64,000 nt of DNA from Candidatus Shapirobacteria bacterium. Lineage in GTDB: Bacteria; Patescibacteriota; Microgenomatia; UM-FILTER-40-11. The notes beneath the pieces are model-generated. The model ran no database searches and was not told the DNA's origin. It was given only the letters and a program-made list of their open reading frames with translations. Positions within the stretch are counted from its first letter, which is position 1, and each line of letters begins with the position of its first letter. A program made the translations under genes and the position numbers. Location of the stretch: positions 26,932-90,931 of the forward strand of contig JAGVBK010000004.1 of the NCBI GenBank assembly GCA_020059745.1. The letters are read 5' to 3'. Shown here in pieces: positions 3,452 to 16,217 of this stretch.

Positions 3452-4489
3452 ATGGCTGACAGTAACGACGAAACACTAAAAGAAGACAGCAAGCCTCCCG
3501 GTTTGGACTTTATCTGCTCTTTTTTTAATGCCCAAACAATCGAACCTCTGGAAAGTAACCTCTTGCAAGTAAAAAGGCAAAATGTGGTGGTCAGGGTAGA
3601 AACTAACCTTGAAGTCTGCCGTCAACTTTTTGAAAAATTCAGCCCTAAAAAAACCCTTTTTGAGCTTTGGGGTTTTCGTTACGCTTTTTACCTTGGCTAC
3701 AAAAACCAGCCTGTTTTTCTTATCTTTGAAAAAGCCGGAGAGCCTTTAGGCTTACTTCCTTTGTGGTATGAGAAAGACAAAGACGAGCTTAGGTGGTTCG
3801 GCTCCTGGTGGCAAGAAGGTAACACTTTCTGGTTTAAGGATAAATCAATAATTCCCCTTGTTTTTTCCCTTTTTGAACAAAAAGTGCTTTTAAACGCTTT
3901 AAGCATGGGGGTGAAAACCGCCAGAAGGCTTGGCCTAACCAGCGATGACCCCAAGTTTTTGTTGTCCCTGGAGCAATACCCTTCTCTTGACTCCTTCCTT
4001 TGCCGATTTAACAGAAAAAAAAAGTACAATCTTAACCGCGACCGAAGAATTATCCTAAGCAAAAACCCTAAAACTATCTTTAACCGTTTCGAAGATATTG
4101 AGAGGCTTTTTGAACTGAGCATTAAAAGGTTTGAAAATAAAGACCTTTCTGCTTTTGTTCAAGAACAAAGAAAACAAACCTTTAGAGAGATTATAAGACA
4201 AAAAGGAGAATATGAAATTAGAACAGTTACCACGGAAATTAATAGTGAAGTTGTGGGGGTTGATTTAATTGCCCTTCACAGGGGCGTTTATTATGCCCTT
4301 AATGGCGCCTATGATATTGAAAAACATCCCGGCCTAGGAAACTACACTAACCTTCTTTTAATTCAGGATGCCATTGACCTAGGTATGAAAGCGGTTGATT
4401 TTCTCGAGGTGTCTTATGGTTGGAAGGAAGATTGGTTTAAGCCAATACCTCTTTTCCAGTTTAATAAAATTGAACCTAAAGCTTCTTAA
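3452..4489 (+). CDS. GNAT-fold acetyltransferase, FemAB/BioF2-like (Acetyltransf_6-type)
   Basis: ORF track 3395..4489. The first 19 codons are AT-rich junk, so ATG 3452 (MADSNDE) is preferred. The C-terminal half (EIRTVTTEINSEVVGVDLIALHRGVYYALNGAYD...VDFLEVSYGWKEDW) resembles the GNAT family involved in cellulose and peptidoglycan-bridge synthesis. Confidence 0.5.
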   Translation: MADSNDETLKEDSKPPGLDFICSFFNAQTIEPLESNLLQVKRQNVVVRVETNLEVCRQLFEKFSPKKTLFELWGFRYAFYLGYKNQPVFLIFEKAGEPLGLLPLWYEKDKDELRWFGSWWQEGNTFWFKDKSIIPLVFSLFEQKVLLNALSMGVKTARRLGLTSDDPKFLLSLEQYPSLDSFLCRFNRKKKYNLNRDRRIILSKNPKTIFNRFEDIERLFELSIKRFENKDLSAFVQEQRKQTFREIIRQKGEYEIRTVTTEINSEVVGVDLIALHRGVYYALNGAYDIEKHPGLGNYTNLLLIQDAIDLGMKAVDFLEVSYGWKEDWFKPIPLFQFNKIEPKAS

Positions 4490-7162: not shown

Positions 7163-9502
7163 TTATAACCTGGCTCTTTTGGCAATTTCCGCTTCAACCA
7201 AAGACCGTTCTTTACCGTACTTAAGCCGGGAAAGCTCTTTTATCTTTTCTGAAAGCTCAGGGCTCATTTCTTTCCAAATTGGTGGCATGTCGTCTTTCAT
7301 GCTAACTGAAAAAGAAGGTACAGGCTCGTTGTTAACAATGGTTTTTATGTAAGCATTAAAAGCCTCAATATTTAAAAGATCGCTTTCTGAAAATGTGGGC
7401 GAAAACTCATGCTGTAAATACTGGGCATCAGTTACTCCCACCCTAAAGGCAATTTTTGTTCCTACATTTCCGAAAACTGCATTTTTCACCTCTTCGTCCA
7501 TCTGGCCAATAAATTGGTTGGCCACACAAAGGCCAAGATGAAATTTCCTCGCTTCAGAAAGGATCTGGGCAAAATCAGGAGTGGCAAAGTTCTGAAACTC
7601 GTCCACATAAAGATAAAAGTCTTTTCTCTGAGCTTCAGGAATATTGGAACGGCTCATTGCAGCCATTAAAATTTTAGGAACAAGGATCAAGCCTAAAAAG
7701 CTCGAGTTTTCCTCGCCGATCTGGCCTTTGGCAAGATTAATGATAAGGATTTTCCCTTCATCCATTACCTTTCTAAAATCAAAAGCGCTTTTTGACTGGC
7801 CGATTATATTCCTTATCATTTTATTGGTGACAAAACGGCCGAATTTAGAAACAATGTAATCAAGGGTTTCTGATTTATGAAAATCAGAGGTTTGGGCAAT
7901 CTGGTCTGTCCAATACCTTCTTACCACCGGATCCTGAACCTTAGGAAGAAGTTCCTGAACATATCTTGGGTCAGTTAAACAGCGAACCACCTCAATAAAA
8001 GTGCTTCCCGGCTCAGACATTACCGTTAACATGGCGTTTCTAATTGCATGCTCAAACCTAGGACCGACAATTCCGGTCTTATAAGGGTCAAAGAGCTTAT
8101 ACATGAGGTTAATAATTGCCGTGGTAATGAAATGCTTTTGGTCCTCTGTCTCTGCCTCAAGCAGATTAAGGCCAATCGGCCGGTCAATATCAGCCGGAGA
8201 AAAGTAAATCACATCATCCGCCCTTTCCGGCGGAATAAGCTGCATTACCTGCTCAAAAGTATCATGAGGATCAATAAAACAAAAGCCCTTTCCGGCCTTA
8301 AGATCTTGGTGCATCATTTTTACCAAAAGCTGTGATTTGCCTGTGCCGGTAGCGCCAATAATATAAATATGGCGCATCCGGTCAGAGTCACCAATATGAA
8401 CCGGTTGCTCAGTACCCCTGAAAACGCTTTTGCCTAAATATATTCCCTGTTTGGGAATTTGCTGGGGAGCCGGCGCTCTTTTGGCATTAAGCCAAAAAAT
8501 ATGAGGTGTTTCCACAGTTTTATTGGGAAAGTGAAAAATAGTAGCCAGCTCTTCACTGCTTAAAACAATTTTGTTGCGGTTAAGATAAAAAAGAGGCTGG
8601 TAGCGGTAAATAAAATCAGTCATAAAAAGCTTGGGCAGTCTCACTTTATAGCTCTTAAAGCCATTTTGATCACCTGAAAGCTGTTCAAAAGCTGCTTTTA
8701 TATTTTGCAGATGGGCTTTGGCGGAAGCTAAGTCGGTAGAAGAGACAACAATTCTTATGTTTGTCTCAAAGTTGGGCTTTGAGCACTTGTTTTCGATTGC
8801 TTCCATTTGTTTGGGGTCAACTTTATAGCTTGCTTTTTCAGGATCGCTCTCGTCTTTTTTCACTTTTGAGATATATTTTCTGCCCGCAGAACGGTTGGTG
8901 TTTCCTGCCGGAGAAATAATCATCTGAATGGCTGCCCCTTCCCCTTCTTTCATTTTGGCCAAAGCCGAGGTAATTGAAGCAAGCGGATCAGTCGGCAAGT
9001 CTTTGTAGACTTTTATCGGCATATAGGAAGAAGACCTGAATTGAAGGTCGGTATAAGTTACTTTTCCTTTTTCAGAAAAAATGTTGTACTCGTTCACCTC
9101 TTTTATGTCTGCTCCGGGGTAGGTGCCGTGAATTTGTTTTTCCACCATATCCCTTAAATTTTTAGGCATGGAAACATAAAAGCGAATATCTTCAGGTAAA
9201 CCCACAATTTCAAAAGAAATGTGGTCCTGAAGTCTTAAAAAAGAAAGCTTCCCGCCTTTGTGGAGTGAAGAAAAAGAAGAAATCATCTGCTCGGCCGCGT
9301 CAATTTTTACTTCGTTGTCCCGGGGGACCGCTACTTGAAGAAGTACATACTCAAGCGATTTCTCTTCCCTTTTTCTGTTCCTGTACCAAATCACTAAAAC
9401 CTGGCCTAAAACCAAACCAAAAAGAGCTGTTAAAGTAGCTGCTAAAGCAGCGTTAATAAACAATCTTAAGTTGCCAATCAAGTCAATTAAATTAGAATTC
9501 AT
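7163..9502 (-). CDS. type IV secretion coupling-protein-like ATPase (VirD4/TraG/TraD family, membrane-anchored)
   Basis: 779 aa with an N-terminal TM, Walker A IIGATGTGKSQ and Walker B FYLYVDEFQNF. The segment ARKFHLGLCVANQFIGQ is typical of TraD/TraG-type DNA-transfer ATPases. Confidence 0.7.
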   Translation of the reverse strand: MNSNLIDLIGNLRLFINAALAATLTALFGLVLGQVLVIWYRNRKREEKSLEYVLLQVAVPRDNEVKIDAAEQMISSFSSLHKGGKLSFLRLQDHISFEIVGLPEDIRFYVSMPKNLRDMVEKQIHGTYPGADIKEVNEYNIFSEKGKVTYTDLQFRSSSYMPIKVYKDLPTDPLASITSALAKMKEGEGAAIQMIISPAGNTNRSAGRKYISKVKKDESDPEKASYKVDPKQMEAIENKCSKPNFETNIRIVVSSTDLASAKAHLQNIKAAFEQLSGDQNGFKSYKVRLPKLFMTDFIYRYQPLFYLNRNKIVLSSEELATIFHFPNKTVETPHIFWLNAKRAPAPQQIPKQGIYLGKSVFRGTEQPVHIGDSDRMRHIYIIGATGTGKSQLLVKMMHQDLKAGKGFCFIDPHDTFEQVMQLIPPERADDVIYFSPADIDRPIGLNLLEAETEDQKHFITTAIINLMYKLFDPYKTGIVGPRFEHAIRNAMLTVMSEPGSTFIEVVRCLTDPRYVQELLPKVQDPVVRRYWTDQIAQTSDFHKSETLDYIVSKFGRFVTNKMIRNIIGQSKSAFDFRKVMDEGKILIINLAKGQIGEENSSFLGLILVPKILMAAMSRSNIPEAQRKDFYLYVDEFQNFATPDFAQILSEARKFHLGLCVANQFIGQMDEEVKNAVFGNVGTKIAFRVGVTDAQYLQHEFSPTFSESDLLNIEAFNAYIKTIVNNEPVPSFSVSMKDDMPPIWKEMSPELSEKIKELSRLKYGKERSLVEAEIAKRARL

Positions 9503-9855
9503 TAGTTTTCTTCTTTCCTAAATTCCGCTCTTGTTCCAAATATTTTTATAACTCTTAAACACCATTCCGTAAGCCAACGGATTGATTCTGTCACTTTTTG
9601 AGTTAACCCCCTGGCATACTGAGTATGGCTGATTGGTAAGACAATGGTCGGATGCTGCGGTGCCGGAGGAGAAACCAAAGGTTGGTTATTATCATCCGTA
9701 ATTGGTTGAGAAAGATAAATTTCTTTTTCTACCTTTTTTATTGCCGGCTCAAGTTCCGGGCTTAACTCTGGTTCTTCTTCAATTTTTACCGGATAAGTTT
9801 CGCTTTCTTCTTTAAAAAGCTGGTTTAAAATTTCTTTCTCGGGCAGCTCAGGCAT
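9502..9855 (-). CDS. hypothetical acidic/proline-rich protein, translationally coupled to the coupling-protein-like ATPase
   Basis: 117-aa ORF whose stop overlaps the downstream ATG (shared position 9502). No recognisable domain. Confidence 0.5.
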   Translation of the reverse strand: MPELPEKEILNQLFKEESETYPVKIEEEPELSPELEPAIKKVEKEIYLSQPITDDNNQPLVSPPAPQHPTIVLPISHTQYARGLTQKVTESIRWLTEWCLRVIKIFGTRAEFRKEEN

Positions 9856-9898
9856 GGATACATTATACAGCCAAAGGAGACAGGAGAAAAGTTATTGT

Positions 9899-10618
9899 TT
9901 AATACACTCCTCTTAAAAACACCTTAGAAAAGTGTTTTTTAAAAACCCCCAGGAAGTTTTCCATTTCTTCTTTGGAGAAAGGTTTAATTTTTGTAAATTC
10001 AGGATCAAGACAACTGGTAGGACGAAACTGTTGAAGATACCAGCTAAAGTTATCTTCTTTAAAATTTCCGGCTGATTTTACCCATTTGGCCGTTTTTTCA
10101 AGACCTTCACGGTCGTGCAAAGTAGGAACAAGAGTAGAACGAAGTTCAAAAGGAAGGTTGCTTTGAAAAATCAAGGCCAGACTTTCTTTAACTGGTTCAA
10201 AGCCAAAGCTAACTCCAGTATACTTTCCATAATTTTCAAAATCTCCTTTAATGTCCATGCAAAGGTAATTAACCAGAGATCCTTTTATTAGTTCTTTAAG
10301 CATCTTGGGGTTAGTACCGTTGGTATGAACCATGGTTTGGTAGCCAATTTTTTTTAATTTTCCCAAAAACTCCGGTAAATCCTTTTGCAGGGTTGGCTCG
10401 CCACCGGTAATAACTACGGCATCTGCCCACTTTTTTCGTGCTTTTAAGTCTGAAATAATTTCTTCTTCCTCTTTTAAAACAGGCTTTGCTCTTTTTTCTA
10501 CCAGTTCAGGATTGTGGCAAAAAGGGCAACGAAAATTACAGCCAGAAGTAAAAATAACCGAGCTGACCAACCCCGGCCATTCAATAAGCGAAGTCTTAAG
10601 GTAACCAGCAATCTGCAT
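9899..10618 (-). CDS. nrdG: anaerobic ribonucleoside-triphosphate reductase activating protein (radical SAM)
   Basis: CNFRCPFCHN radical-SAM cluster motif and GGEPTLQ. It lies directly downstream of nrdD. Confidence 0.9.
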   Translation of the reverse strand: MQIAGYLKTSLIEWPGLVSSVIFTSGCNFRCPFCHNPELVEKRAKPVLKEEEEIISDLKARKKWADAVVITGGEPTLQKDLPEFLGKLKKIGYQTMVHTNGTNPKMLKELIKGSLVNYLCMDIKGDFENYGKYTGVSFGFEPVKESLALIFQSNLPFELRSTLVPTLHDREGLEKTAKWVKSAGNFKEDNFSWYLQQFRPTSCLDPEFTKIKPFSKEEMENFLGVFKKHFSKVFLRGVY

Positions 10619-10619
10619 T

Positions 10620-10754
10620 TTAAGATTTAAAGGTCTTCCTTATGGAGAATTCCGCCTGTTTGCCGTCATTCCACTGTGATACCGGCCTTAAATAGCCGAC
10701 AATTCTTGAAAAAACTTCGCAGGGTTGCCTTTTTAAAAAAATCTGTTTGGACAT
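10620..10754 (-). CDS. 44-aa ORF carrying the class III RNR glycyl-radical motif (detached NrdD C-terminus)
   Basis: Below the ORF-track size cutoff. ATG 10754..10752 is preceded by AAAGGAGGTGAGA. The translation is MSKQIFLKRQPCEVFSRIVGYLRPVSQWNDGKQAEFSIRKTFKS. It contains the conserved SR(I/V)xGY...W(N)xGKxxEFxxR glycyl-radical signature that is missing from the 690-aa NrdD ORF. Its stop is 1 nt before the nrdG ATG. Confidence 0.7.
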   Translation of the reverse strand: MSKQIFLKRQPCEVFSRIVGYLRPVSQWNDGKQAEFSIRKTFKS

Positions 10755-10765
10755 TCTCACCTCCT

Positions 10766-12838
10766 TTAGTTTTCAATAATAACTTCAAGTCCTTCTTTCT
10801 CAAACTTTTCTTTCTTTCTTTCAAGCTCTTCGTCGCACTTCGGGCAGAAAAAATGCTCTCCTGAAAGATATCCGTGAACCGGGCATATACTGAAGGTGGG
10901 GGTTAAAGTATAGTAAGGCAAATGAAACTTGTCGGCAATCTTTTTAACTAAGTTTTTCAAGGAATTAATGTCCGGCATACTTTCCCCTAAAAACCCGTGG
11001 AAAACCGTGCCGCCTGTATAAAGGCACTGCAGGTCATCCTGATGCTCTAGAGCTTCGAAAATATCGGAAGTGTAGTTAACCGGCAGCTGGGTTGAGTTGC
11101 TGTAAAAAGGCTCTGCTTTGCCTTCTTTAAAAGCACTATCATTAGCAAAAATTATGTCCTTAAAGCGCTTTCTGTCTTCTCGGGCAAAGCGGTAAGAAGT
11201 TCCTTCTGCCGGCGTGGCCTCAAGATTAAAAAGCTGGTTTGTTTCTTCCTGATATTTGCCCATTTTGTCGCGCATAAAGTTAAGTATCTCAAGAGCAAAT
11301 TTTCTAGCCTCAGGCGAATAAATCGGCTTGTTAAGGAAGTTAAGACAGGCTTCATTCATACCTAAAAGGCCAATGGTGTTAAAATGGTTTTTCCAATATT
11401 CGCCAAACCGTTCCTTTATACCTTCAAGGAAATACTTTGAATAAGGATAAAGTCCTTTTTCGGTAAAATCTTCAACTACCCTTCTTTTAATAACCAAACT
11501 TTCCTTTGCCAAATCCATTAAATTTCCAAGCCTTTCTTTAAAATCAGTTTTGTTTTCAGCTAAATAGCCGATCCTGGGAAGATTAATTGTCACTACCCCG
11601 ATACTGCCGGTTAAGGGATTGGCTCCAAAAAGACCGCCGCCTTTTTTTCTAAGCTCTCTGTTGTCAAGCCTCAGACGGCAGCACATGCTCCTTGCGTCTT
11701 CAGGCTTCATGTCAGAGTTTACAAAGTTTGAAAAATAGGGAATTCCGTATTTTCTTGTCGCCTCCCAGAGGTTTTCAAGATAAGGGTTTTCCCAATCGAA
11801 ATCCTTGGTAATATTTATGGTGGGAATCGGAAAAGAAAAAACTCTGCCTTGGGCATCGCCTTCAAGGTAAACTTCTCCTAAAGCTTTATTAAAAATATTT
11901 ATTTCCTCTTGAAACTCGCCGTATGTTTTGTTCTGCGGTTCCCCGCCGATTATAACCGGCTCTTTTTTCATCATGTCAGGAACTACCAAGTCAAGGGTAA
12001 TGTTTGAAAAGGGAGTCTGAAAACCAACCCGAGTGGGCACATTCATATTAAACATAAACTCCTGCAAAGCTTGTTTAACTTCTTTATATGAAAGCTTGTC
12101 ATAATAGATAAAAGGCGCAAGCAGGGTATCAAAACTGGAAACAGCCTGAGCTCCGGCTGTTTCTCCCTGAAGAGTGTAAATGAGGTTTGTCAACTGTCCT
12201 AAGGCTGTTCTTAGATGCTTGGGGGGCTTTGAATAAATTTTTCCCGGCACCCCGCCAAAACCTTTAACTAAAAACTCTCTTAAATCCCAACCACAGCAGT
12301 AAGCCGCCAAAATCGCCAAATCATGAATATGAAGGTCTCCGCCGACATGAGCTTCGCCAATTTCTCGAGGATATATTTGGTTTAACCAGAAATTTGAAGT
12401 AATTAAGCTGGAAACATGATTGTTAAGGCCTTGGAGAGAATAGGTCATGTTACTGTTTTCTTTTACCCGCCAGTCAAGCTTCTTAATATAGTTGTTAACC
12501 ATCTCGTCACTATCAACCAAGCTGTTTATGTCTCTTATTTTTCGGTGAAGCTCGCGGTAAAGAATGTAGGCCTTGGCTACCGCCACTTGCCGGTTTTTAA
12601 TGAGCACCTCTTCAACAATGTCCTGAATTTCCTCAACGCCGGGAACAGTATGGCCGTCAAAACGCTTTTCCAAAAGCTGAACAACCTGGTCTGTCATTGT
12701 TCCTGCTTTCTCTTTATTAGCCTCTCCGACTGCCCTCATTGCCTTTAAAACGGCAGCTAAAATCTTTTTTTCATTAAAAGAAACAATGCGGCCATCTCTT
12801 TTTTTTATTCTTTTAACGGTAAGTTCGTTTTCTTTCAT
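10766..12838 (-). CDS. nrdD: anaerobic ribonucleoside-triphosphate reductase, large fragment (ATP-cone, catalytic barrel and Zn-ribbon; lacks the glycyl-radical tail)
   Basis: N-terminal ATP-cone (VKRIKKRDGRIVSFNEKKI) and class III RNR core. The C-terminal TPTFSICPVHGYLSGEHFFCPKC zinc knuckles are followed by a stop before the RxxGY motif. Confidence 0.9.
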   Translation of the reverse strand: MKENELTVKRIKKRDGRIVSFNEKKILAAVLKAMRAVGEANKEKAGTMTDQVVQLLEKRFDGHTVPGVEEIQDIVEEVLIKNRQVAVAKAYILYRELHRKIRDINSLVDSDEMVNNYIKKLDWRVKENSNMTYSLQGLNNHVSSLITSNFWLNQIYPREIGEAHVGGDLHIHDLAILAAYCCGWDLREFLVKGFGGVPGKIYSKPPKHLRTALGQLTNLIYTLQGETAGAQAVSSFDTLLAPFIYYDKLSYKEVKQALQEFMFNMNVPTRVGFQTPFSNITLDLVVPDMMKKEPVIIGGEPQNKTYGEFQEEINIFNKALGEVYLEGDAQGRVFSFPIPTINITKDFDWENPYLENLWEATRKYGIPYFSNFVNSDMKPEDARSMCCRLRLDNRELRKKGGGLFGANPLTGSIGVVTINLPRIGYLAENKTDFKERLGNLMDLAKESLVIKRRVVEDFTEKGLYPYSKYFLEGIKERFGEYWKNHFNTIGLLGMNEACLNFLNKPIYSPEARKFALEILNFMRDKMGKYQEETNQLFNLEATPAEGTSYRFAREDRKRFKDIIFANDSAFKEGKAEPFYSNSTQLPVNYTSDIFEALEHQDDLQCLYTGGTVFHGFLGESMPDINSLKNLVKKIADKFHLPYYTLTPTFSICPVHGYLSGEHFFCPKCDEELERKKEKFEKEGLEVIIEN

Positions 12839-12865
12839 CTATACAGAAATAAAAAAATTAATAGA

Positions 12866-12897
12866 TAAAAAAGTAAAAACGAGCGAGGGTTTTTACT
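12866..12897 (-). terminator. hairpin plus T-run in the nrdD upstream region (terminator of the DUF5667 gene or a leader attenuator)
   Basis: Minus strand: AGTAAAAAC cctcgctc GTTTTTACT TTTTT, a 9-bp stem ending about 27 nt upstream of the nrdD ATG. Confidence 0.5.
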
Positions 12898-13094
12898 TAA
12901 AAGTGAAACCATTATCACCCAAGCGATAGAAGGCCTGTCAACCAGCAATTTTTATATCAAAATAGGTCAAGAGTGGTGAAACGCCTCGATTTTTTGGGAG
13001 AATTTTGGTAATCAGTGGAATTTTTTAAAAAAAAGGTTTAAAAAGATTGTGCTAATTATTTCTTCAATTTGTAAAAAGGATATGGAAGAGTGGT

Positions 13095-13715
13095 TTAAAT
13101 CCCGTTAAGTTTTGCCTTTACCGGAGACATATATTTAAGAAGGTCATCAACTGCTTCTTTGCCTGAAGAATCAACCCTTTCTTTAACTTCTTTTAAAACC
13201 TCCTCATGCTTTAAAGAAGCTTTCCTGAGCGTTTCCCTAAACTCAGCTGTCTCTATTCCTTGGGCTTTTGCTTTTTCCGTCTCAAGAATGGCTTTTTCAA
13301 AGTATCTTTCCGCCTTTACTAAAGTGGGAATTCCCATCTCAGGTTTTCCTCCTTCAACTAAAACTTTTCCTGCCCCCAATCTTTTATCAGAGTAAAGCAA
13401 GAACAAGCTCGCTCTGTCCAGAGTTTTCCTGACAAGCCAAATTTTAACCCTGTCTCTTATCATCTTAATTTTATAAAGAGGGTTATCGGGCAAAATCCCC
13501 GGATAGGCGAGGAAATAATCAGATTTTGGAACAGCCGTGGGGGTTGCTTCCGCCGAAGCGCTTGATTCTTCCGAAACAGTAAGTTTAAGAGAGGTTACGG
13601 CAAAACTGCTTGGAGCACTAATGGTGGCGTTTTTAACGGAAACAAAAAGAACGCTAAAAGCAAAGGTAAAAACCAAAACCAGGGTTAAGACTCTTTTCAG
13701 CATCGGTAAATGCAA
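13095..13715 (-). CDS. DUF5667-like secreted/membrane-anchored protein
   Basis: N-terminal TM or signal, the PGILPDNPLYKIKMIRDRVKIWL motif typical of DUF5667, and a helical C-terminus. Confidence 0.6.
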   Translation of the reverse strand: MHLPMLKRVLTLVLVFTFAFSVLFVSVKNATISAPSSFAVTSLKLTVSEESSASAEATPTAVPKSDYFLAYPGILPDNPLYKIKMIRDRVKIWLVRKTLDRASLFLLYSDKRLGAGKVLVEGGKPEMGIPTLVKAERYFEKAILETEKAKAQGIETAEFRETLRKASLKHEEVLKEVKERVDSSGKEAVDDLLKYMSPVKAKLNGI

Positions 13716-13748: not shown

Positions 13749-16217
13749 TCAGGAAACAACGAAGTTAATAAGCTTTCCGGGGACAAAAATTGTCTTTTTA
13801 AGTTCTTTGTCTTTAAGATATTTTTCCACTTTTTCGCTCTTTTTAGCCCTTTCTTCAACTTCATTCTTATTTTTAGCCAAAGAAAAATCAATTTCCAAAG
13901 TCTCTCTTAACTTACCGTTTATCTGCACAGCAATAACCACCCTCTCCTCTTCAATCAATTTTGGATCATGCTCCGGCCAAGAAGTAGCGTGAATTGAAAA
14001 AGCCTCTCCCAATCTTGACCAAAGCTCTTCGGCTAAAAAAGGAGCAAAGGGAGCCATAGTCTTTAAAAAAAGCAAGGAATCACTTCTTGAAAGGTTGCCT
14101 GATGCTTGCCAGCTGTTGGCAAATTCCATCATTGCCGCCACGGCCGTATTATATTTAAAGTTACCGATGTCTTCCCCTACCTTTTTAATTGTTTGGTGGA
14201 GTTTACGCTTAAGCTTTGCTTCAGTTTCCTTTTCAGAAACCTGGTTTAAAAATAGGTTCCATACTTTTTTTAAAAAGCGGTAAACTCCTTCCAGGCTTTC
14301 CTGACTCCAAACCATGGTTGCATCAAAAGGACCAATAAACATAAGGTAAACTCTCAAGGCATCAGCGCCAAAAGCTTCCCAAATTTCATCAGGGTTAACT
14401 ACATTACCTCTTGATTTACTCATTCTCTGGCCGTCTAGGCCCAAAATCACACCGTGCGAAACCCTTTTATAATATGGTTCTGGCTCTTCTTTGGGAACAA
14501 CACCAATATCCCACAAAAACTGGTAAATAAACCTTGAGTAAAGAAGATGTAAGGTATTGTGTTCGTCTCCGCCGATATAAATATCAACCGGCAGCCAATA
14601 CTTAAGCTTTTTTTGATCAGCCAGGCTTTGATTATTTTTTGGGTCAATGTATCTTAAAAAATACCAGTCACTTCCGGCCCAGTTAGGCATGGTGTCTGTT
14701 TCTCTTCTTGCCTTCCCCCGGCAAGAGGGGCATTTTGTCATTGTCCAATCTTTTATTGAAGCAAGCGGCGACTCGCCTGTTTTGGTTGGTTCATATTCCT
14801 CAACCGGAGGCAGTCTGACTGGTAAATCTTTTTCCTCCACTGGTTGCCAACCGCACTTCTCACAAAAAACCATGGGAATAGGCTCACCCCAATAGTGCTG
14901 TCTGGAAAAAATCCAGTCACGCAAATGATAAGTGGTTGCCTTTTTGCCAATTGATTTTTCTTCCAAATACTTTATCGCTAGTTTTATCGCCTCTGTTGGC
15001 GTAACTCCATTCCAAAGCTCGGAATTAACAGTCGTTCCCCGGTCAGTCTCGGTATAAGCTGATTTAGAAAAGTCCCAATCATTTTCAGGCGGTTCTATCA
15101 CCGGGATAACCGGAAGACCGTATTTTTGGGCAAAATCAAAGTCGCGCTCGTCATGCGCCGGCACGCCCATAATTGCACCTGTACCGTAAGAAGACAAAAC
15201 AAAATCGCCGACCCAAATCGGAATTTCTTTTCCATTGATGGGGTTTATGGCAAAGCTGCCGGTAAAACAGCCTGTTTTTTTCTTGGTGAGTTCAGTTCTT
15301 TCCAGCTCTGTCTTTTTCTGGGCCTGGTCAATGTATTCCTCTACCGCCCTTTTTTGCCCTGGCAAGGTTAGCTCGGAAAGAGAAGAAAGTTCTGGCGCTA
15401 AAACCATAAAAGTAGCACCGTAAAGTGTATCCGGCCGGGTGGTAAATACCCTTATTTTTAAATCTTTACCTTTAACCGGAAAATTAATGTGTGCGCCTTC
15501 TTTTTTACCAATCCAGTTAATCTGGGCTGCTTTTACCTTTTCCACAAAGTTAGTTTTTTCAAGGCCGTTTATCAACCGGTCCGCGTAATCTGTAATTTTA
15601 ACAATCCATTGCTCTAAGTTTTTCTTTGTTACTTCTGCCCCACATCTTTCGCACTTACCGTTAATAACTTCCTCATTAGCAAGACCAATTTTGCAGCTGG
15701 GGCACCAATTGATCGGCATTTGGGCTTTGTAGGCTAAACCTTTTTTAAAAAGCTCAATAAAAATCCACTGGGTCCATTTATAGTAGTCTGGGTCTGTGGT
15801 ATTAATTTCTCTTTCCCAATCAAAAGACAAACCCATTCTTTGCATCTGCTCTTTAAAGCGGGTTGTATTTTCCCTGGTAATTTCCTGAGGGCGGCGCTTT
15901 TCTTTAATGGCATAATTTTCTGTCGGCAGACCAAAAGCATCCCAACCCATAGGAAAAAGAACATTATAACCCTTCATCCTGAAAAAACGGGCTAAAACAT
16001 CTCCTCCGGTAAAAGCAAAGGCATGGCCAACATGAAGACCAAAACCGGAAGGATAAGGAAACTCAACCAAAACATACTTTTTTTGCCTTTTATCAAAATC
16101 AGAAGCTTTGTAGGTAGAAGCTTCCCGCCACTTTTCTATCCATTTGGGTTCAATCTCACGAGGATAATATCTTTCTTTTTTTTCTTCTGCCATTTTAGTT
16201 ATTAAGCTATTATACAA
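13749..16217 (-). CDS. leuS: leucine--tRNA ligase
   Basis: 822 aa. HVGH (HIGH) motif at PSGFGLHVGHAF, KMSKS motif (QRMSKSRGN), and the CP1 editing domain. Confidence 0.95.
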   Translation of the reverse strand: MYNSLITKMAEEKKERYYPREIEPKWIEKWREASTYKASDFDKRQKKYVLVEFPYPSGFGLHVGHAFAFTGGDVLARFFRMKGYNVLFPMGWDAFGLPTENYAIKEKRRPQEITRENTTRFKEQMQRMGLSFDWEREINTTDPDYYKWTQWIFIELFKKGLAYKAQMPINWCPSCKIGLANEEVINGKCERCGAEVTKKNLEQWIVKITDYADRLINGLEKTNFVEKVKAAQINWIGKKEGAHINFPVKGKDLKIRVFTTRPDTLYGATFMVLAPELSSLSELTLPGQKRAVEEYIDQAQKKTELERTELTKKKTGCFTGSFAINPINGKEIPIWVGDFVLSSYGTGAIMGVPAHDERDFDFAQKYGLPVIPVIEPPENDWDFSKSAYTETDRGTTVNSELWNGVTPTEAIKLAIKYLEEKSIGKKATTYHLRDWIFSRQHYWGEPIPMVFCEKCGWQPVEEKDLPVRLPPVEEYEPTKTGESPLASIKDWTMTKCPSCRGKARRETDTMPNWAGSDWYFLRYIDPKNNQSLADQKKLKYWLPVDIYIGGDEHNTLHLLYSRFIYQFLWDIGVVPKEEPEPYYKRVSHGVILGLDGQRMSKSRGNVVNPDEIWEAFGADALRVYLMFIGPFDATMVWSQESLEGVYRFLKKVWNLFLNQVSEKETEAKLKRKLHQTIKKVGEDIGNFKYNTAVAAMMEFANSWQASGNLSRSDSLLFLKTMAPFAPFLAEELWSRLGEAFSIHATSWPEHDPKLIEEERVVIAVQINGKLRETLEIDFSLAKNKNEVEERAKKSEKVEKYLKDKELKKTIFVPGKLINFVVS

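Follow-up and report, generated by a model that had tools for sequence, protein, structure and literature searches.

A class III ribonucleotide reductase with its glycyl-radical loop apparently encoded as a separate 44-residue peptide

A nrdD gene in two parts

We analysed a 64-kb stretch of a Candidatus Shapirobacteria genome (contig JAGVBK010000004.1; hereafter the window), whose minus strand carries genes for an anaerobic, class III ribonucleotide reductase (RNR) in the order nrdD, a 44-residue open reading frame (ORF) and nrdG (Table 1). The 690-residue product of nrdD ends in ...CPKCDEELERKKEKFEKEGLEVIIEN-TAA (in longer quotation ...ICPVHGYLSGEHFFCPKCDEELERKKEKFEKEGLEVIIEN), 22 residues past its own Zn ribbon. 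A motif scan of this translation found no R..GY anywhere in the 690 residues, and the sole occurrence of R[IVLT][VTSC]GY in all six frames of the window is at 10706, inside the small ORF. The product of the small ORF is MSKQIFLKRQPCEVFSRIVGYLRPVSQWNDGKQAEFSIRKTFKS, with its stop codon at 10622..10620. Between AGGAGG and its ATG (10754..10752) lies the spacer TGAGA (10759..10755), and 1 nt (10619) separates its stop from the ATG of nrdG (10618..10616). NrdG scores 194 bits against TIGR02495, for which the cut-off is 131. The original prediction for this DNA had described much of this layout, and it was right about an NrdD that stops past the Zn ribbon without RxxGY, about a small ORF preceded by AGGAGG and ending 1 nt before nrdG, and about a run of four As within GAAAAC at 10770..10773. 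Its distance of 14 nt from nrdD to the small-ORF ATG holds only if the stop codon is counted; the gap itself is 11 nt.

The two ORFs divide a single protein profile between them. Positions 1-532 of the Pfam NRDD profile (562 positions) fall on the large ORF (E 6.5e-180) and positions 531-562 on the small ORF (E 6.6e-10, above the gathering score), which bears out the prediction that the 44-residue product corresponds to the C-terminal glycyl-radical segment of NrdD. The large ORF also scores 1029 bits against NCBIfam NF006126 (cut-off 548), which identifies its catalytic barrel as homologous to that of NrdD, and it keeps the ATP-cone, the NSN flap, the MCCR finger loop and a Cys/His/Cys/Cys Zn site. 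Residues S384, M385, C386, C387 and R388 are invariant in alignments A2 and A3, and the SMCCRLRL motif to which they belong is of the same type as SCCR in Thermotoga maritima NrdD (PMC4493059). The predicted Zn ligands C652, H655, C665 and C668 are invariant in 64 sequences; T. maritima NrdD likewise has a Cys/His/Cys/Cys Zn site (PMC4493059). In the peptide, Gly20 aligns with Gly621 of T. maritima NrdD, the radical site of that enzyme (PMC4493059). Because the large ORF aligns to residues 101-610 of T. maritima NrdD and the peptide profile to residues 616-646, we place the break after the Zn ribbon and ahead of the buried radical loop. The class III hallmark of a C-terminal RxxGY loop on the same polypeptide is absent, the motif sitting instead on the 44-residue ORF; the window system fits class III RNR in every tested feature except that the radical loop is on a second chain.

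Past its Zn ribbon the core carries a tail for which AlphaFold2 (AF2) predicts a helix at moderate to low confidence. The tails of the homologues P0121-P0164 have CDEE..EK..LEKEG..V.IE in common, and this element may serve for docking, helping to hold the peptide.

Table 1. Features of the window and of selected comparison loci. Coordinates are those of the window unless another locus is named.
Feature	Coordinates	Strand	Basis or remark
nrdD core gene	10766..12838	minus	690 aa + TAA; catalytic subunit without glycyl-radical segment; ORF list
ATP-cone, allosteric activity site, residues 10-99	12542..12811	minus	Pfam PF03477, E 2.4e-22
Finger-loop motif SMCCRLRL, residues 384-391	11666..11689	minus	Translation; cysteines that would receive the radical
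Zn ribbon CPVH-x9-CPKC (C652, H655, C665, C668)	10835..10885	minus	On large subunit; translation
22-residue tail DEELERKKEKFEKEGLEVIIEN past Zn ribbon	10769..10834	minus	Tail pattern conserved in window clade
Promoter-like TTGAGA-16-TATTAT, inside nrdD 3' end	10776..10803	minus	10/12 match; weak
A4 run within GAAAAC	10770..10773	minus	Sequence; homopolymer suspected in the original prediction
Shine-Dalgarno AGGAGG	10760..10765	minus	5 nt ahead of small-ORF ATG; sequence
Small ORF, putative stand-alone glycyl-radical peptide of NrdD	10620..10754	minus	44 aa + TAA; NRDD profile, relatives, invariant residues
RIVGY motif; Gly20 codon 10697..10695	10692..10706	minus	Predicted radical site; profile alignment to 4COI 616-646
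nrdG, radical S-adenosylmethionine (SAM) activase, 239 aa	9899..10618	minus	TIGR02495 (NrdG2), E 1.4e-57
NrdG cluster motif CNFRCPFC (CxxxCxxC type)	10540..10517	minus	Translation
Phage example L194 (set L170-L247), peptide gene	L194:10001-10108		Between terminase 8348-9679 and portal 10128-11609
Fused nrdD + spare loci	L074:2009-4440, L075:2003-4421, L076:2003-4418, L249:1870-4279, L250:1867-4279		

Conservation and distribution of the divided gene

The original prediction had attached a caveat to the split, namely that a sequencing error in the homopolymer, or a recent frameshift, might conceal a contiguous nrdD with five As in the run. Taken to cover assembly errors as well, this view makes the true gene ~738 codons long, with its five As at 10770-10773. 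One added A would indeed fuse the frames into ...VIIEKLKEVRMSKQ..., and the evidence from independent data and from relatives refutes the view. A Logan assembly from a different sequencing run (SRR22315504; L081) is 99.94% identical over 1600 nt with 0 gaps, has GAAAAC-TAA unchanged and also contains the 44-residue gene itself. Among the 120 closest NrdD homologues (64-83% identity), ~96 share this end point: CPxCDEE and a variable tail close the protein, and RxxGY is missing. The fused ones (~24 of the 120, mostly labelled Gottesmanbacteria) read ...CPxCGKxCEVWSRIVGYLRPV..., with just 3 residues between CPxC and CEV; these natural fusions have neither the 22-residue tail nor the 11-residue leader.

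Relatives of the small ORF are abundant. We found 220 in databases, the best 120 of which are all free-standing proteins of 41-75 residues, with a Met start in 116 of these 120. A search with the peptide profile against 1.84 billion cluster representatives (50% identity) returned 4913 matches. Among the best 150 of these, 145 were newly returned, comprising 132 stand-alone proteins with the motif, 10 stand-alone proteins with a variant of it, and 3 that look fused or fragmentary. An ORF with 220 relatives and 4913 profile matches is far beyond chance.

The junctions themselves differ from locus to locus. Besides the window and its duplicate assembly we compared 15 split loci, in which the gap between the two ORFs ranges from -29 to +187 nt, with each of the three frame offsets represented, a spread beyond any single-base error. 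Eleven split loci, the window and ten GTDB species genomes, were analysed jointly. Their spacers from nrdD stop to peptide ATG are 11, 72, 117, 113, 14, 65, 59, 187, 144, -29 and 0 nt, where -29 nt denotes overlapping genes (L065) and 0 nt a TGA followed directly by ATG (L073); frame offsets 0, 1 and 2 are all present, and nrdG is the next gene in 11 of 11. Further spacers measure 27, 33 and 44 nt in loci closely related to and syntenic with the window, 37 nt in an Aenigmarchaeota locus and 123 nt in a metagenome-assembled genome (MAG) of Hippea. In the loci of the window clade (WIN, L001, L082, L084, L086), AGGAGG or GGAGG stands 4-6 nt ahead of the ATG in five of five; a conserved ribosome-binding site and start codon of the peptide's own are hard to reconcile with an error.

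These junctions bear equally on programmed ribosomal frameshifting, or some other recoding that would join both ORFs into one polypeptide, a mechanism that might seem to suit the window, where the ORFs are near neighbours in different frames and an A-rich run is nearby. We found no conserved slippery site; the eleven loci use all three offsets, their spacers of up to 187 nt contain in-frame stops, and neither the overlap at L065 nor the TGA-ATG at L073 suits such a mechanism. The N-termini of the peptides vary in length and nearly always begin with Met, and an Rfam search of 9500-13200 for introns and recoding elements gave no meaningful match. Because spacers and frame offsets vary between loci, we exclude both sequence error and programmed frameshifting, judging the former extremely improbable and the latter highly so. 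That post-Zn-ribbon stop and free ORF are kept in relatives across different spacers and frames, with ~96 of 120 core homologues and 15 further split loci, supports what the original prediction had put forward conditionally, a separate small subunit that would bear the radical. The AGGAGG and ATG of its own suggest, on the strength of gene structure and conservation, that the peptide is translated separately within an nrdD-peptide-nrdG operon.

A decaying core, with a complete RNR elsewhere in the genome doing the work and the small ORF left over, would be compatible with a view confined to 64 kb. We consider it very improbable nonetheless. The core has kept its ATP-cone, NSN flap, MCCR finger loop and Zn ribbon and is 64-83% identical to more than 90 homologues truncated in the same way, and nrdG holds its place in the operon at all loci of the eleven-locus comparison. 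The peptide, for its part, has 16 residues that are invariant across bacterial and archaeal sequences, and its nonsynonymous divergence (dN) is 0.06-0.3 with synonymous divergence (dS) saturated, giving dN/dS of ~0.02-0.12 where computable. These values point to strong purifying selection on the peptide, which argues against a remnant.

Bacterial split loci are labelled Microgenomates, Woesebacteria, Uhrbacteria, Falkowbacteria, other Patescibacteria and, in one case, a Hippea sp. MAG; archaeal ones are labelled Woesearchaeota, Micrarchaeota, Nanobdellota and Aenigmarchaeota. Among the Patescibacteria and the DPANN archaea the two-gene form occurs in several lineages. A neighbour-joining tree of 179 cores, each ended at the Zn ribbon, implies at least 5 changes between split and fused, with the two states interleaved. 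We make no claim about the direction or number of split origins, because the internal branches of this tree are very short. The Hippea locus (L038:60-1319) is a split nrdD outside the candidate phyla; its core tail reads ...CPICKEEKLEEIES..., and its 123-nt gap is followed by a 59-residue peptide with a helical-looking leader and by an nrdG that overlaps by ATGA. A peptide identical to that of the window carries the NCBI name Candidatus Microgenomates bacterium C4578_03490.

Several individual sequences depart from the common pattern. Some free peptides (P0327, P0341, P0381) read RVVGF, with G-F in place of G-Y, and in P0241 (66 residues) the whole radical segment is tandemly duplicated. At L062 a 44-nt direct repeat (43/44 identical; 3852-3895 and 4004-4047, spaced 152 nt) has its first copy across the nrdD stop codon and its second where the peptide ORF begins; the arrangement resembles what an insertion into an older, overlapping peptide gene would leave behind. 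The core tails of one split clade (P0173-P0240) have a conserved CDEE-[IM]-G-Y right behind the Zn ribbon, and MAFFT (alignment A4) pairs this CDEE-IGY tail with the VGY of the radical motif. The tail may be a vestige of a lost radical loop in cis or, equally, a coincidence. Inteins lie inside the core of the nrdD relatives P0140, P0147, P0154, P0156, P0162, P0164 and P0196 and of L082:1-3473; these proteins are 1009-1352 residues long, have Intein_splicing and LAGLIDADG matches, and retain the separate peptide gene downstream. A split intein or trans-splicing at the window junction was considered and rejected, the tail there being 22 and the leader 11 residues long, with no intein domain match at either.

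Radical segments beside intact NrdD and in phages

In the Paceibacterota/Minisyncoccales species genomes L074-L076, and in L249 and L250, nrdD is complete and fused (708-711 residues) and is followed after 1-17 nt by a gene for a separate protein of 92-94 residues, which combines a Zn-ribbon-like part with a second radical motif; nrdG comes next. The radical segments in cis and in trans are identical across 24 residues in L249. This 92-residue family has 857 database relatives, the best 120 of which are all 74-110 residues long, and includes Minisyncoccus archaeiphilus MNSN_06970 (name as given by the source). Its only match is to the NRDD model, at positions 510-562. For the 44-residue peptide and its relatives of 59-115 residues, too, searches of Pfam and NCBIfam gave no match to the Gly_radical model of the pyruvate formate-lyase (PFL) type, only to NrdD models. 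To judge from gene content and homology, a 92-residue protein beside an intact NrdD would be a true spare-part arrangement of the kind known from GrcA.

Copies of the peptide gene also stand alone in phages. In 69 of 80 IMG/VR contigs with the gene, tblastn and hidden Markov model (HMM) searches found neither an nrdD core nor nrdG within 10 kb, and the orphan genes adjoin genuine structural genes of tailed phages, those for terminase, portal, major head and tape-measure proteins (Table 1). Among GenBank phages the peptide has matches in two records only, an unannotated gut phage and the ANMV-1 archaeal virus (L248:3686-4120; KP703175.1). The ANMV-1 protein (AJP62049.1), annotated as anaerobic ribonucleoside triphosphate reductase, has 144 residues and consists of a Cys-rich Zn-ribbon part and the radical motif only. 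ANMV-1-like proteins of 99-125 residues include P0281, P0318 and others in L102 and L108. The orphan phage copies may constitute an auxiliary gene, not previously described, that re-arms the host enzyme.

ORFs resembling HNH homing endonucleases lie directly upstream of the phage peptide gene in L091/L171 and L179 (9260-9943); in L091 the HNH ORF is in the same stop-to-stop frame as the peptide. There are hints here that insertion of an endonuclease may have created or mobilised the split.

A probable two-chain enzyme, its rivals and its precedents

We think it likely that the window and its relatives encode a genuine, conserved two-gene class III RNR, in which the radical loop is translated apart from the core, activated by NrdG and inserted non-covalently. 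The ATP-cone, the Zn ribbon and a ten-stranded barrel whose finger loop holds the Cys-Cys pair would come from the 690-residue core, the buried loop with Gly20 from the 44-residue peptide. NrdG would abstract hydrogen from Gly20 while the peptide is free or once it has bound the core via the Zn-ribbon region, and the loop would sit non-covalently in the barrel beside Cys386/387, in the manner of the C-terminal loop of T. maritima and T4 NrdD. Because the cut that oxygen makes in glycyl-radical proteins falls at the radical glycine, replacing only the 44-residue peptide, not the 734-residue enzyme, would suffice after oxygen damage. The radical loop lies buried within the barrel and has to come out to reach the activase (PMC4493059), and in Prevotella copri NrdD the glycyl-radical domain is a mobile rigid body that leaves the barrel and can vanish from cryo-electron microscopy (cryo-EM) maps (PMC11226230). 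Because the window core is without a radical domain of its own, the peptide there would be an obligate subunit and not a spare.

Core and peptide were modelled with AF2 as one concatenated chain. The class III fold was reproduced, and the best Foldseek matches are all class III RNRs. With a 37-row alignment, residues 691-734 had a predicted local distance difference test score (pLDDT) below 50; with free peptides added as rows, mean pLDDT was 80, the peptide reached 53-73 and the Zn ribbon was poor, in an alignment where MAFFT had set the Zn ribbons of fused rows against the peptide leader.

Several considerations weigh against the two-chain interpretation. AF2 did not place the peptide confidently on the concatenated pair, and several split loci of group B have no recognisable Shine-Dalgarno sequence at the peptide gene. 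Separate translation, activation in trans and docking are read from gene structure and homology. Our view covers 64 kb of the genome, and a second complete RNR elsewhere is possible. Finally, the advantage of cheap replacement is an adaptive story, and a tolerated neutral fission with tight binding of the loop would look alike in sequence.

Such a neutral fission, a real split that brings no consumable benefit and leaves the peptide permanently bound to an enzyme acting as fused NrdD does, is in our judgement unlikely, while deserving serious weight. The interleaving of split and fused states in the tree suggests easy interconversion, and split genes are common in DPANN archaea (PMC3655853). 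On the other side stand the duplicated spare beside intact NrdD and the orphan phage gene, both hard to explain without a function for the free form, and the precedent set for pyruvate formate-lyase by GrcA/YfiD and T4 Y06I (PMC13450708). Spare copies and orphan phage genes fit an autonomous, exchangeable radical cofactor. We tentatively extend the two-chain reading in that direction, and propose as a possibility, one we hold with less than even confidence, that NrdD-type peptides are widespread as exchangeable, consumable protein cofactors of anaerobic ribonucleotide reduction, which serve as obligate subunit, as GrcA-like spare or as a lone auxiliary of tailed phages that re-arms or boosts the host enzyme during infection, and which would make up the first spare-part system outside PFL.

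Comparison with characterised enzymes places the window system close to the canonical NrdD/NrdG of phage T4, Escherichia coli, T. maritima (4COI/4U3E) and P. copri (8P23). Shared with these are the ATP-cone, the barrel, the cysteines of the finger loop, RxxGY, an adjacent radical-SAM activase and a Zn ribbon that comes after the last barrel strand and before the radical loop. In all characterised enzymes, however, the radical loop is the covalent C-terminus, whereas in the window it belongs to a separate 44-residue product.

GrcA/YfiD of E. coli and Y06I of phage T4 are autonomous glycyl-radical spare parts of pyruvate formate-lyase (PMC13450708). Like the window peptide, GrcA is a small, free-standing radical module; it is activated by the cognate activase and supplies its loop to a large barrel, as the window peptide would, and a phage version exists. 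Two things set them apart. The homologue of GrcA is the PFL C-terminus, and the window peptide matches NRDD only. GrcA is also a reserve for an intact enzyme, called on once oxygen has cleaved it, whereas the window core has no radical domain. Coexistence with a complete enzyme, absent from the window, is found for the 92-residue type (L074-L076 and L249), and these Zn-ribbon/glycyl-radical proteins are the closer functional analogue of GrcA. The analogy drawn in the original prediction is apt for how the peptide may work, with the refinement that the window peptide would be an obligate subunit where GrcA is a spare.

Other divided RNRs offer more distant parallels. In split class II enzymes, NrdJa/NrdJb, the C-terminal accessory region is on a second, adjacent gene (PMC9669993). 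These belong to another RNR class with an adenosylcobalamin radical, and their second chain, IscU-like with a Zn-finger, serves re-reduction and has no radical site. Among phages with fragmented RNR genes, Aeromonas phage Aeh1 reportedly has nrdA split by the mobE homing endonuclease. In the Jug jumbo gut phages nrdD is in four pieces, and no RNA splicing was seen between the last of these (91 residues) and the piece before it (PMC12880540). The likeness is that these broken genes are still apparently functional, and HNH genes lie upstream of two of the phage peptides described above. The Jug and Aeh1 breaks, however, are attributed to introns, inteins and homing endonucleases in single phage lineages and have not been read as a radical subunit, whereas at the window split no mobile element intervenes, and the arrangement is shared by cellular organisms of different phyla.

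A June 2026 review recognises spare parts only for formate lyases and leaves the matter undetermined for other glycyl-radical enzymes (PMC13450708). Our own literature search, with subscription journals outside its scope, turned up no account of NrdD being split, having a stand-alone radical subunit or coming with a spare part, and Pfam and NCBIfam hold no dedicated model for either the 44-residue peptide or the 92-residue protein. The stand-alone NrdD radical peptide is apparently a conserved, undescribed design. If the exchangeable-cofactor proposal is true, PFL would no longer be the only glycyl-radical enzyme with a known spare part. The loci make the spare-part question directly testable for an anaerobic enzyme of DNA-precursor synthesis. 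The 44-residue peptide would be a natural minimal substrate for NrdG, useful for learning how activases reach a buried glycine, and the split may be part of the reason why ultra-small symbiotic bacteria and archaea can manage at oxic-anoxic interfaces. RNR surveys and annotation pipelines that insist on the C-terminal glycine motif would score split NrdDs as defective or truncated.

The surroundings of the cluster yielded a few minor observations. A promoter and terminator scan of the region gave counts equal to chance expectation, those of the TTGAGA-16-TATTAT type included; the promoter-like element of this type just upstream of the peptide gene (Table 1) could, on weak evidence, add transcription of the peptide and nrdG. 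In the relative L084, genes flanking the nrd cluster in matching positions have faint TrwB/TraG-like and DUF5667 matches. In the window the cluster is flanked, all on the minus strand, by a 779-residue ORF (7163-9502), a 206-residue ORF (13095-13715) and a leucyl-tRNA-synthetase-like ORF (13749-16217).

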